DNA of 64,000 nucleotides, taken from Escherichia coli. Lineage in GTDB: Bacteria > Pseudomonadota > Gammaproteobacteria > Enterobacterales > Enterobacteriaceae. Numbering within the stretch: the stretch's first letter is position 1; each line of letters opens with the position of its first letter. Positions 17,929 to 64,000 of the stretch are shown here, piece by piece. Made by a program: the position numbers and the translations under genes. The DNA lies in assembly GCF_030013595.1 (NCBI RefSeq), contig NZ_CP122770.1. One strand, 5' to 3'. Under the pieces are notes generated by a model. The model had not been told where the DNA came from and did not search any database. It saw nothing but the letters and a program-made list of their open reading frames with translations.

Positions 17929-18005
17929 AAGCTGTCGCTTATGGCGGAGCGATTGTGCCGTGTATTTATACACTGCACAGGGTTGAATCTCTGGTACGGT
18001 TTCAT
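17916..18005 (-). CDS. repY: RepY leader peptide (29 aa), translationally coupled to repZ
   Basis: ATG at 18005, MKPYQRFNPVQCINTRHNRSAISDSLWQV, stop TGA at 17916-17918 overlapping the repZ 5' region, as expected for the IncI1 repY-repZ arrangement. Confidence 0.7.
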   Translation of the reverse strand: MKPYQRFNPVQCINTRHNRSAISDSLWQV

Positions 18006-18019
18006 TATACTTTACCCGT

Positions 18020-18091
18020 ATTCTGTGAGGCCCCCACTATCTTTCGTCGTTCCGCCAAGTTCGTAAGAAAGATAGTGGGGGTTTTCCTTTT
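18020..18091 (+). ncRNA. inc: Inc antisense RNA (replication-control countertranscript) with terminator hairpin
   Basis: Perfect 15-bp stem CCCCCACTATCTTTC / GAAAGATAGTGGGGG (18031-18081) with loop containing CCGCCAA (complement of the rep-mRNA rUUGGCG loop), followed by TTTTCCTTTT, on the strand opposite the rep mRNA leader. Confidence 0.55.
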
Positions 18092-18745: not shown

Positions 18746-19081
18746 TTTGACGCTTTTTTGTATGTTTTTTAAGCTGTTAGTTGACTCGGTGCGTTATACT
18801 AAGTACCCTTTACTGGTCACAGGCAAAACTGTGATCGGGCGTAGGAACCCGCGTAGTCATCGTCGGCGCAGAAGTTAATTTCTTCATTTGGCGTCGTTTT
18901 TTGCCATACCATAAAGACAGGAACTTGTATTTCTTGTCGTCATCTATGGTAGCTCAGGCGGGGCAGGCATTAGCCTGGCCGGTTTCCGATGACGCCGGTA
19001 TTCCTACCCCCGTCTGGGCTATCACCAATGAGCGTAGGAACTCGGTGATAGCGTTTTTAGTTGTCATCGGAGACCTTTGCT

Positions 19082-60798: not shown

Positions 60799-61461
60799 AT
60801 GAAAGCTAAAAAAGAAACAACAGACAGATTTCCAACCTGGTGGCTATTTTATTATGTATTAAGAAAAGCTTATTTCTTTCTTGGAATACCTTTTTTTCTG
60901 TTCTGCGCATTAGGCTTTACCGAAATGCTATGTTCTGATCGTTATTTCGGAAATAAGGTCGAAGATTATGTTGTCACTTTCGGTAGTTGGTTCTTATTAC
61001 TTGCGCCAGGCATATGGATGTACTCACGTGCAAAAACAAGGAGAGAAAAAATAAGAAAAGTTGTACAAACAATAAAAGAGTCAGGCTTCTACTCTCCAGA
61101 GAAGGGGTATGAGGGATTATCTTTAACCCAGGGAGCTTATTTCGGCATTGACCTTAAAAATGGCACAATGTTGTATGTCCGTATCTATCCAGGCAACATT
61201 ATGGATGTTATCGGTTTTGACATTCATAATTTCACTCGTACTGTAACAGACGACAAAAAACTGGAAATTCATACGAAATACATCAATCTGCCAATGGTTC
61301 CTGTTCCATCATGGTGTGCTCATCCAGAAACAGCATCAAACACCATGCACGCAATGGCAAGTCGAGGATATGATTACCCAGTCGACTTTCCTCGCCTGAT
61401 TCAGGAAAAGCGTAAGGAGTGGGAGCAGATTGCAGGCATGCCTGTAGCCGAAGTATTTTAA
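60799..61461 (+). CDS. excA: ExcA entry-exclusion protein
   Basis: 220-aa protein with N-terminal TM helices, located directly after traY. Confidence 0.7.
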
Positions 61462-61532
61462 GATAAGCTCCCTCCATAACAGCCGGTTCAAATGAGCCGG
61501 CTTTTGTTCATTACAACAGATAACTTATGCCG

Positions 61533-61748
61533 TTACCGATAAATTCGACCAAGTGCTTTAATCGCAGCAATTTTTATTTCCATATCATCACTTTGACTCA
61601 ATCTATGTAATTCACGAGTAATGTTCTCCGCCTGACACCGGCCTTCACCTAATGCATAGATCGCAGCAAGTGTAACGTCTTTTGATTTACTCTTCATCAT
61701 TTCAAACAAGAAAGTATTAGCTATCGCAGGAGGCATGCTCATAATCAA
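61533..61748 (-). CDS. Hypothetical small protein convergent with excA
   Basis: 71-aa ORF with two helical-repeat-like segments (AIYALGEG / AAIKALGRI); weak support. Confidence 0.25.
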   Translation of the reverse strand: MIMSMPPAIANTFLFEMMKSKSKDVTLAAIYALGEGRCQAENITRELHRLSQSDDMEIKIAAIKALGRIYR

Positions 61749-61976
61749 TCCTCTTCATGAAATAAACAATGGCACTCACTTACAAACAGGAGTCCACTAT
61801 CGCAAGCGACTCAACTTAGCAATATCTCTCAATTTGAATGAAAAAACCAGATGGCATGTGACAGGGAACCGTCCGCATGATGTCCGTGACCATTTAACCC
61901 CATAAGCTAACCTTGTCACAAACGGGCGCAGAACAGCCTGCCAGACAGACAACAAAACAAAAGTCCAAGATAAAAC

Positions 61977-62105
61977 ATGAATACCGGTATCTCAATGCGA
62001 AGAAATAATCTCCGTAGAAACCCCCATGAGAAAAATATCATATGGGAGAAAATCGCAATTATCACAGCCAGCGCATTCATTATTTTCGCTGTGCTCTGGC
62101 ATTAA
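61977..62105 (+). CDS. Candidate small membrane peptide (42 aa from ATG 61977; 36 aa from ATG 61995)
   Basis: Charged N-terminus (RRNNLRRNPHEKN) followed by one hydrophobic helix (IAIITASAFIIFAVLW); below the ORF-track size cut-off; weak RBS. Confidence 0.25.
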   Translation: MNTGISMRRNNLRRNPHEKNIIWEKIAIITASAFIIFAVLWH

Positions 62106-62133
62106 TTATTTTCAACACAAAAAGGAAAAAACA

Positions 62134-62310
62134 ATGAATCTGGTAGACGCCTTTGTCAAAAAAGTAATATCCGGGCCATATGAAGAATATGGAAAATGGT
62201 GGATAGATGTTGAATACATTTCATGGGGTGTTCCCGGGAAAACAAGACTGATGTTTGAGTCAAAGGAGCAGGCACTGGAAGTTAAAGAAGGGTACAAATT
62301 TTTAACGTGA
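62134..62310 (+). CDS. Hypothetical 58-aa protein
   Basis: ATG 62134 preceded by AAAAGGAAAAAACA RBS; MNLVDAFVKKVISGPYEEYGKWWIDVEY... Confidence 0.4.
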   Translation: MNLVDAFVKKVISGPYEEYGKWWIDVEYISWGVPGKTRLMFESKEQALEVKEGYKFLT

Positions 62311-62371
62311 GATCTCTTTTTTGATTAGCAGGATTTTTGACATAGTGTGGGACAAAGCATAGAATTGATTA

Positions 62372-62459
62372 TGTTAGATACAGACTGTCTTTTCCCGCCC
62401 AGAGCAACCAACTCTGTAGCGGAACAGTAAAAAAGCCGACCTCACCAGTCGGTTTTTTT
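62372..62459 (+). ncRNA. Candidate small RNA unit 1 (promoter to intrinsic terminator, about 88 nt)
   Basis: Sigma70-like promoter TTGACA (62337-62342), 17-nt spacer, TAGAAT (62360-62365); hairpin CAGAG-caaccaa-CTCTG; terminator GCCGAC-ctcacca-GTCGG plus T7 (62435-62459). Confidence 0.35.
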
Positions 62460-62618
62460 ACATCTGTTGTTTCTGCAAATCCGCCCCACCATGCCTGTTA
62501 TACCGGGAAGACTCATGTTCTGGTTACCGTCATCACGACAGAAGTGTCGCCAGACAGTGCTAACCTGCGGATTACAAGGGTGGTTGTTATCAAATGAACA
62601 GAACACTATTATAAGAAC

Positions 62619-62705
62619 GTTAGCTGAAAAGAGATTTCCTCCAGTCAGGGCCACCAACTCTGTAACGGAACAGTAAGAAAACCGACCTCATCAGTCGGTT
62701 TTTTT
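62619..62705 (+). ncRNA. Candidate small RNA unit 2 (paralogue of unit 1)
   Basis: Promoter TTGTTA (62584-62589), 17-nt spacer, TATTAT (62607-62612); conserved 3' block CCACCAACTCTGTAACGGAACAGTAA and terminator (62681-62705). Confidence 0.3.
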
Positions 62706-62771
62706 ACATTTATTACTTCTGAGTAACGACAAGCTGTACGTAGCAAGCTCCCTCTGGCGTGGAGGACGTCA

Positions 62772-62915
62772 GCGGGCTACTATAATGTTGTCTAGGCATT
62801 ACAGTAGAGCCCTTGGTTGATTGATAGAACAATCTCCCGGGGCTTTCACAAACGCTTTCAGCTTACAGCCTCAAGCTCCCCACCGCGATTTTGACGACTT
62901 TCGTATTTTGCAACA
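62772..62915 (+). ncRNA. Toxin-less duplicate of the pnd antisense/leader region (putative orphan Sok/PndB-like antisense RNA)
   Basis: About 85 percent identical over roughly 150 bp to 63735-63900, including the promoter-in-hairpin GGGCTACTATAATG...CATTACAGTAGAGCCC; the minus strand has only a truncated 28-codon mok-like ORF and no hok-like ORF. Confidence 0.4.
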
Positions 62916-62990
62916 ATATCAGGTGGTCAGCCTTTCCCGTAAACTTATGGCATGTTGCATTAATCAGGTAGAACAAATTATCATTTTTAG

Positions 62991-63078
62991 CGTCAGTTAT
63001 AGACAGCTCTTTTCTGGTCAGAGTCATCAACTTTGTAGCGTAACAGTAAAAAAGCCGGCCTCACCAGTCGGTTTTTTT
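62991..63078 (+). ncRNA. Candidate small RNA unit 3 (paralogue of units 1 and 2)
   Basis: Promoter TTGCAT (62955-62960), 18-nt spacer, TATCAT (62979-62984); hairpin CAGAG-tcatcaa-CTTTG; terminator GCCGGCctcaccaGTCGG plus T7 (63053-63078). Confidence 0.35.
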
Positions 63079-63233
63079 ACGTCTTTTGTATCTGCAAAAT
63101 CCGCCCCGCCATGCCCGTCACACCGGGGAAACTCATGCTCTGAACCTGAACCAGCCATCTCAACTTTGCCGTCTTCTGAAAAAACTGGCACATTCAGTTC
63201 GATAACTACCCATAAATACAGAGAGAAAATCCG

Positions 63234-63485
63234 ATGTCAGAAAAGTGGAGTAAAGAATTCGACTCTTGCTTTCAGGTGGGGAGCATAGAAGAAATTGCCG
63301 ATGCTCTCGAGAAACGCAGCGGAAGCGAGGAAAACGCGTTAGCCATGCTGGCAATGACAGCCTTCACACTCATGACCCGACGTGGTATCTGCGAAATGCA
63401 GAACGTGGCCCCCGATGGCAAAGGCATTCGGCTGGAGCTAATCGGCTTCAGGGGAAATGAAACAATACCGGATACGCTTCATTGA
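63234..63485 (+). CDS. Hypothetical 83-aa protein
   Basis: ORF followed by hairpin GCGGCGGCAG-aaaacc-CTGCCGCCG (63523-63548) that could also terminate the convergent pnd transcript; RBS weak. Confidence 0.3.
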   Translation: MSEKWSKEFDSCFQVGSIEEIADALEKRSGSEENALAMLAMTAFTLMTRRGICEMQNVAPDGKGIRLELIGFRGNETIPDTLH

Positions 63486-63556
63486 AGAAGAAAGGGCGCA
63501 ATGAGGTCAGCCTTCGCAACAAAGCGGCGGCAGAAAACCTGCCGCCGTGTTGCCCG

Positions 63557-63709
63557 TTAACGTTTAACTTCGTAGGCTAACGTTGCCACAAGCACTGTGT
63601 TTCCCTGCTGGAGCCGGAGTACGCAAAGCGAATCCCTCACCATCCAGACAAAACACAGAATCGTCACACAGATGACGATTAACATCATTAAAAACGTTCG
63701 CTGTGGCAT
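63557..63709 (-). CDS. pndA: PndA, Hok/Gef-family type I toxin (50 aa)
   Basis: MPQRTFLMMLIVICVTILCFVWMVRDSLCVLRLQQGNTVLVATLAYEVKR, matching the Hok family TM helix, SLC motif and LAYE C-terminus; found by manual translation (below the ORF-track cut-off). Confidence 0.9.
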   Translation of the reverse strand: MPQRTFLMMLIVICVTILCFVWMVRDSLCVLRLQQGNTVLVATLAYEVKR

Positions 63710-63767
63710 CATAGCCCCTCCATTGCCTTACGGCGGTTATCGGGCTACTATAATGTTGTCGAAGCAT
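63564..63767 (-). CDS. pndC: PndC, Mok-like overlapping reading frame needed for pndA translation
   Basis: ORF in another frame overlapping nearly all of pndA and ending 7 nt before its stop; start taken at the internal ATG (63767) within the antisense target region; start uncertain (ORF-track ATG at 63848). Confidence 0.45.
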   Translation of the reverse strand: MLRQHYSSPITAVRQWRGYDATANVFNDVNRHLCDDSVFCLDGEGFALRTPAPAGKHSACGNVSLRS

Positions 63768-63815
63768 TACAGTAGAGCCCTTGGTTGATTGATAAAAAAA
63801 TCTCCAGGGGCTTTC
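63748..63815 (+). ncRNA. pndB: PndB/Sok-like antisense RNA with promoter embedded in a hairpin
   Basis: TATAAT at 63748-63753 on the strand opposite pndCA; predicted transcript overlaps the pndC start region and ends at stem CCCTTGG...CCAGGGG followed by CTTTCT. Confidence 0.45.
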
Positions 63816-64000
63816 TGCTGTATACCGTCCACAAAACGCTTTCGGCATACAGCCTCAAGCGCCCGCAGCTATTCTAACGACTTTCGTATCTGCAACAATC
63901 CTTTTATCACACGGCTAATTCCTCTGGTTAGCTCTTATCGCCTGCAAATAAATTTTTAACCTTTCCGTTTGATTTAAATTCCAGAAATGGAGACTTTGTC

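Follow-up and report, generated by a model that had tools for sequence, protein, structure and literature searches.

The window analysed in this study, a stretch of 64,000 nucleotides of Escherichia coli DNA, carries at its right-hand end a compact locus comprising a toxin gene (pndA), an overlapping leader frame (pndC), the regulatory elements of the pnd mRNA and, on the opposite strand, a putative antisense RNA gene (pndB). Positions 63490-63898 of the minus strand almost certainly represent pndCAB, a complete type I toxin-antitoxin module of the hok/sok family for post-segregational killing, carried by an IncI1 (ColIb-P9-type) plasmid. The initial annotation had described an intact pnd locus of this family here, and all of the elements that it named were found and matched family profiles. 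It had also considered the element itself to be known, and positions 63400-64000 proved 100% identical in DNA to ColIb-P9 (NC_002122.1), with no difference over this range, and to many other IncI1 plasmids. The locus is real, and it is an already known, ordinary element.

Annotated relatives carry pnd between excA and trbA, the same place as in the window, where the start of trbA falls one base beyond the window end; in pSTM709 the genes are annotated as pndA and pndC. A 601-base query (63400-64000) matched 1,940 plasmid records and the locus alone (63485-63900) matched 1,976, almost all of them conjugative, and about 850 plasmid records showed at least 99% identity to the pnd locus sequence. 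The limits of 63500-63960 first proposed for the locus needed adjustment on both sides. On the left, the fbi element (63494-63506) and the inferred 3' end of the mRNA (about 63490) lie just outside 63500, and on the right the promoter ends at 63898, with positions 63900-63960 being intergenic and upstream of trbA. The locus is useful for typing the window as IncI1 backbone and for orienting the interval between excA and trbA. Beyond showing that the window has an intact maintenance module of a standard kind, it is of little significance.

The toxin gene was found in a 51-codon open reading frame that begins with two consecutive ATG codons (63557-63712, minus strand; MMPQRTFLMMLIVICVTILCFVWMVRDSLCVLRLQQGNTVLVATLAYEVKR). 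The second ATG (63709), located 7 nt after the GGAGG of the Shine-Dalgarno sequence GGAGGGG (63715-63721), is the start of the 50-aa PndA, so that pndA with its stop codon occupies 63557-63709 of the minus strand, with the ATG at 63712 as an alternative start. Whether counted as 50 or 51 codons, pndA is below the default cut-off of the ORF lister (60 aa), as had been pointed out, and serves as a reminder that type I toxins slip below the usual ORF cut-offs. The search of the 50-aa peptide against Hok/Gef profiles, set beforehand as the refuting test, returned a match to Pfam HOK_GEF (PF01848) that scored 45 bits against a gathering score of 22 (E=7.9e-12) and covered positions 3-42 of the 42-position profile. 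Matches to the HokA and Hok models of NCBIfam were also obtained (E=9e-19 and E=4e-11, respectively), with scores below their curated cut-offs (67.2 vs 89 and 42.6 vs 73). Alignment with Hok of R1 was ungapped over the full length at 30% identity, placing RDSLC/RKSLC and LAYE/MAYE in register, and revealed in PndA the N-terminal hydrophobic helix followed by the conserved SLC...AYE C-terminal part; the same SLC...AYE columns can be seen in the family alignment that accompanies a 2026 preprint on Hok diversity as supplementary material.

More than 1000 contigs on record carry the exact PndA sequence, named PndA or Hok/Gef family protein, and the preprint lists the V30 PndA of the window as unique sequence #1416 in its supplement. 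R483 PndA, which was found toxic in the same preprint, is identical at 49 of 50 residues, the only change being G30V (V30 here, G30 in R483). By its sequence, therefore, the toxin allele of the window is different from the one that was tested experimentally.

An overlapping mok-like frame had been predicted, and it corresponds to pndC, a leader frame of 67 aa that overlaps pndA in another reading frame (63564-63767, minus strand), was present in the ORF list and is labelled pndC in pSTM709. The exact 67-aa protein is on record as PndC. Its ATG (63767) lies inside the region complementary to PndB and its stop is at 63564. Extended upstream, the frame reaches 94 aa (63564-63848, minus strand), which exceeds the 60-aa cut-off and explains its listing.

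The promoter of the pnd mRNA is assigned on the minus strand to a -35 element TTGTTG (63898-63893), a 16-nt spacer and a -10 element TAGAAT (63876-63871). The probable transcription start is the G at 63864, 6 nt past the -10 element; it is also the first position of the Rfam match described below, and the spacing from the -10 element equals that of the hok/flm reference locus (TATGAT-GTGCCC-G). A generic promoter scan flagged neither this promoter, which has a weak -35 element, nor that of pndB, and both were assigned by homology of position. If the start of the Rfam model marks the 5' end, and the 3' end is placed where the fold-back pairing stops, the full-length mRNA would be about 375 nt long (63490-63864, minus strand). 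The Rfam family RF01794 ('sok') matched 63707-63864 of the minus strand over model positions 1-157 of 157 with 131.7 bits (gathering score 59; E=4e-31). This score, together with the 100% DNA identity to known IncI1 plasmids, excludes a chance origin of the pnd elements. Since the family is 157 nt long and matches the toxin/mRNA strand, it describes the leader in the tac-ucb conformation and extends beyond the 64-nt antisense RNA alone.

Folding of the RNA from 63864 to 63485 gave -161.3 kcal/mol (z=-7.7 vs shuffles). In the minimum free energy (MFE) structure the tac element at the 5' end (GGGCGCUUGAGG; 63853-63864, minus strand) pairs through nt 1-6 and 8-11 with its 3' partner fbi (CCUCAUUGCGCCC; 63494-63506, minus strand), giving pairs 1-371, 2-370 and so on to 11-360; the helix joins GGGCGC and UGAG to CUCA..GCGCCC at 63494-63505. 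The helix of hok differs in sequence, as it is formed by GGCGCUU/AAGCGCC and AG/CU in place of GGGCGC/GCGCCC and UGAG/CUCA. The 5'/3' fold-back expected on folding the mRNA was thus obtained in silico, and was shared by the MFE structures of the IncI1, IncI-gamma and IncK2/Z alleles of pnd and by that of a hok control. In this control (398 nt) the pairing ended exactly at nt 398, and in the IncK2/Z allele an A replaces a U in fbi, which adds one pair to the fold-back. Converging on pnd from the plus strand is a gene (63234-63485) for a conserved hypothetical protein of 83 aa (WP_001291965.1), which matched neither Pfam nor NCBIfam; its stop codon lies about 8 nt from the end of fbi, and the two transcripts may thus terminate facing each other.

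An alternative partner for tac in the 3'-truncated mRNA is ucb (AAAGCCCC; 63807-63814, minus strand), with which the tac bases pair in the Rfam consensus structure. This pairing was expected in the unconstrained fold of the truncated mRNA and was absent from it; a 5' hairpin, which resembles the metastable hairpin described for hok, formed instead. The enforced tac-ucb structure was only 0.7 kcal/mol higher, and we therefore regard the refolding as compatible with the folds, which falls short of demonstrating it. When tac-ucb was enforced, the truncated RNA presented a hairpin (63746-63774, minus strand) with the loop GCUUCGACA, also seen in the MFE folds, which is the candidate target of the antisense RNA. 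The UUCG within this loop is presumably a motif of the YUNR type, as in hok/sok (Franch et al. 1999). The 3' hairpin that had been noted was located at 63525-63547 of the minus strand (CGGCGGCAGG UUU UCUGCCGCCG). It is rich in G+C and lies between the stop codon of the toxin (63557-63559) and fbi, where it would be the expected stop for 3' exonucleolytic trimming. In hok, trimming from the 3' end reportedly halts at a G+C-rich hairpin before fbi, a finding ascribed to Franch and Gerdes in 1996-97.

An antisense promoter on the opposite strand had likewise been proposed, and it was recovered on the plus strand (63723-63754), again by homology of position, as a -35 element TTGCCT (63723-28), a 17-nt spacer and a -10 element TACTAT (63746-51) overlapped by TATAAT (63749-54). 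Its position and spacing are the same as those of the sok promoter (TTGCGC-17-TATCCT) in the hok reference locus, and its -35 element is the counterpart of AAGGCAA, a conserved stretch in the Rfam consensus. By analogy with Sok, transcription from it would yield an antisense RNA, PndB, of about 60 nt (63758-63818, plus strand) consisting of a single-stranded 5' tail, a terminator hairpin and a U-rich tail. The 65 nt downstream of the promoter folded at -29.2 kcal/mol (z=-5.9) into a tail and a hairpin followed by UUUCU. PndB is classed as a putative cis-encoded antisense RNA gene whose promoter-like hexamers, spacing and hairpin are present and conserved; the promoter is kept in the three intact pnd alleles and is destroyed in the toxin-less copy described below.

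The closest relatives of the locus are the pnd loci of the IncI-alpha plasmid R483 and of R64 and ColIb-P9, which share its gene order, its position beside trbA and its regulatory elements. The pnd of R16 and of IncB-O-K-Z plasmids is approximately 90% identical in DNA and contains the same elements, with several substitutions in the toxin and the loop allele GCCUAGAC in place of GCUUCGAC; in IncK2/Z plasmids pnd follows directly after excA, without the repeat region that is present in the window. More distantly, hok/sok (parB) of R1 and flm of F share with the window locus a weak mRNA promoter, the tac/fbi end-pairing, an overlapping frame of the mok type, an antisense promoter (TTGnnn-17-TAnnnT) at the corresponding position and a 3' hairpin that precedes fbi. 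The hok/sok system differs in its toxin, which is only 30% identical, and in the sequence of its target loop.

From these systems a mode of action can be proposed for the window copy, in which the sequence elements, the family membership and the in silico pairings belong to the window itself and every kinetic or physiological step is drawn from homology. The weak promoter would supply a stable pnd mRNA of about 375 nt. In the full-length molecule tac would be locked to fbi, leaving the mRNA unusable by ribosomes or by the antisense RNA, until slow trimming of the 3' end back to the G+C-rich hairpin frees tac. Freed tac could then pair with ucb, and the ribosome site of pndC and the antisense target hairpin would become exposed. 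As long as the plasmid is present, the short-lived and strongly expressed PndB would bind this target and block translation of pndC, and the duplex would be degraded; because translation of PndA would be coupled to that of pndC, it would be blocked as well. After plasmid loss PndB would decay first, and the stored mRNA would be translated into the 50-aa membrane peptide PndA, which would kill the cell. Post-segregational killing by the window copy is expected from homology to R483 pnd, which kills plasmid-free segregants and shares its gene arrangement and regulation with hok/sok; processing of the mRNA at the 3' end, antisense-dependent cleavage by RNase III and killing of plasmid-free cells are all known for R483 pnd (PMC4147584).

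How much such a locus adds to plasmid maintenance depends on context. Inactivation of the pnd of R64, which adjoins trbA, led to rapid plasmid loss according to the account of Furuya and Komano (1996) given in PMC4083329. Plasmids remained as stable as before in the laboratory when pnd was deleted from pCT (IncK), or when pnd alone was deleted from pESBL (IncI), and its contribution to maintenance can therefore be redundant. These null deletions also favour a different view, namely that pnd is intact and expressed and that its main role is other than vertical stabilisation (exclusion of phages, exclusion of competitor plasmids or protection of the transfer region from deletion), the killing of segregants being minor. 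The location of pnd inside the transfer region (excA-trbA), away from the replicon, fits this view, as does the presence in this plasmid type of ParM and ParA partition genes and of a system of the RelE/ParE type. The cloned R483 locus nevertheless kills plasmid-free cells, the R64 result argues in the same direction, and no feature of the sequence suggests another trigger, so that we consider a main role of this kind rather unlikely. It is far less probable still that pnd is a decayed, non-functional relic of the hok family, as several chromosomal hok loci are. The toxin does differ by one residue from the tested R483 toxin, and a degenerate copy of the pnd leader 1 kb away shows that decay occurs in this region. 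Against this, the ORF, the Shine-Dalgarno sequence and the start codon of pndA and all regulatory elements are intact, the fold-back and the leader score as well as in functional relatives, and the conservation at 99% or more across about 850 plasmid records is consistent with either purifying selection or a recent spread. The preferred reading remains that of a complete post-segregational killing module.

The initial annotation had further suggested that pnd could serve as an anchor for interpreting the flanking repeats. This held for one of them, at 62739-62917 of the minus strand, which duplicates part of pnd (promoter, leader and pndB region) without the toxin, as seen from an RF01794 match of 67.5 bits (62739-62880), from repeats and from alignments. 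Missing from the copy are 16 nt of the first hairpin, the -35 element of pndB, the Shine-Dalgarno sequence and start codon of pndA, and the toxin ORF. Its target loop, GCCUAGAC, is that of the IncK2/Z, R16-type allele, whereas the resident intact pnd has GCUUCGAC. The other repeats did not follow the suggestion, being AgrB-like and unrelated to pnd.

These are three direct repeats of about 90 nt on the plus strand (62373-62462, 62619-62708 and 62992-63081), which match Rfam RF02891 (AgrB) with 59.4, 50.7 and 37.7 bits, respectively; with a gathering score of 40, the first two are above it. All align end to end with Rfam AgrB, are approximately 80% identical to agrA/agrB of K-12, and have a scaffold 91% identical to that of IncX3 agrB. 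Each copy ends in a bidirectional terminator, and copies 1 and 2 have promoters that were positive in the scan. The 3' scaffold is conserved and the 5' 34 nt differ among the copies; in the K-12 control it is these same 34 nt that pair with dinQ (31/34 complementary). By their sequence, the repeats are AgrB-like sRNA genes of the DinQ/DqlB system. An AgrB-type sRNA is also found in dinQ-agrAB of E. coli K-12 and in dqlB-agrB of IncL, IncX3 and IncI plasmids; the window differs from these in having neither a DinQ/DqlB toxin ORF nor a complementary target. The DqlB-AgrB pair was shown in 2025 to act as a plasmid addiction module and has been reported in 67% of IncI1 plasmids (PMC12365149, PMC12317039).

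A DinQ/DqlB-like toxin was absent both from the window and from the rest of a matching IncI1 plasmid, as judged from Smith-Waterman comparison of small ORFs with DinQ, from tblastn searches with DqlB and DinQ and from NCBIfam searches of candidate peptides. Ungapped complementarity searches of the window and of the same plasmid also revealed no trans target for the AgrB-like 5' regions: matches of 24/34 were to sister copies only, and beyond their own and sister antisense strands the best was 23/34. Whole-molecule duplex folding of the AgrB-like RNAs gave only uninformative long-range duplexes. Minus-strand mini-ORFs beside copies 1 and 3 (MSLPGITGMVGRI...) were considered as toxins and rejected, being non-hydrophobic, without a family match and wrongly placed with respect to the shared terminator. 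The DNA just 3' of these two copies (62477-62522 and 63097-63142) forms a repeat of its own with 85% identity, whose minus strand contains the conserved start of a mini-ORF (MSLPGITGMVGRI / MSFPGVTGMAGRI) reading into the shared bidirectional terminator; weak Thr_leader-like Rfam matches were also observed in this repeat.

Comparison with an IncI-gamma/K1 plasmid locus (L009) placed the repeats in context. At either end this locus aligns collinearly with the window, its positions 1-1091 corresponding to 61205-62321 and its positions 1501-2414 to 62992-63907. The two blocks of L009 are separated by a segment of 409 bp that contains an intact dqlB and its 5' UTR; in place of this segment the window has an unannotated, toxin-less mosaic of 670 bp (62322-62991) that contains two of the AgrB-like sRNA genes and the toxin-less pnd promoter/leader copy. 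NCBIfam NF041473 matched the L009 peptide (67.8 bits) and none of the ORFs in the window flank. By position, the third AgrB-like copy is orthologous to the cognate agrB, and its complementarity to the L009 target is only 29.5/34, compared with 32.5/34 for the cognate pair. Plasmid records matching the mosaic at a coverage of at least 80% numbered 315, and those matching the dqlB segment 807.

Loss of the toxin accompanied by duplication and decay of antitoxin genes is the simplest reading of the flank. According to this reading, the lineage lost the neighbouring DqlB toxin and kept and multiplied the antitoxin-like sRNA genes, which bears on the decay of addiction modules or on their use against competitors. 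A bolder proposal, which we hold to be improbable, is that in IncI1 plasmids of the ColIb-P9 type the mosaic is a small array of orphan type I antitoxins and not debris. Here the three AgrB-like sRNAs, with their diverged 5' targeting regions, and a PndB' with the R16/IncK allele in its recognition tail would neutralise the DqlB or Pnd toxins of competing plasmids in trans (anti-addiction) or modulate the resident pnd. With pnd itself known, the unannotated toxin-less mosaic is the only observation here that is new, and it is only mildly so.

Other features were observed elsewhere in the window. Upstream of the AgrB-like repeats, a 42-aa ORF (61977-62105, plus strand) with a strongly hydrophobic C-terminal segment (…IIWEKIAIITASAFIIFAVLWH) had no family match and is unannotated in RefSeq relatives. 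At the gathering level of Rfam, a repZ pseudoknot was matched at 17941-18089 of the minus strand (194.5 bits), which marks the IncI1 replicon, and about 850 nt from it a member of the C4 antisense RNA family was matched at 18942-19029 of the plus strand (77.5 bits).
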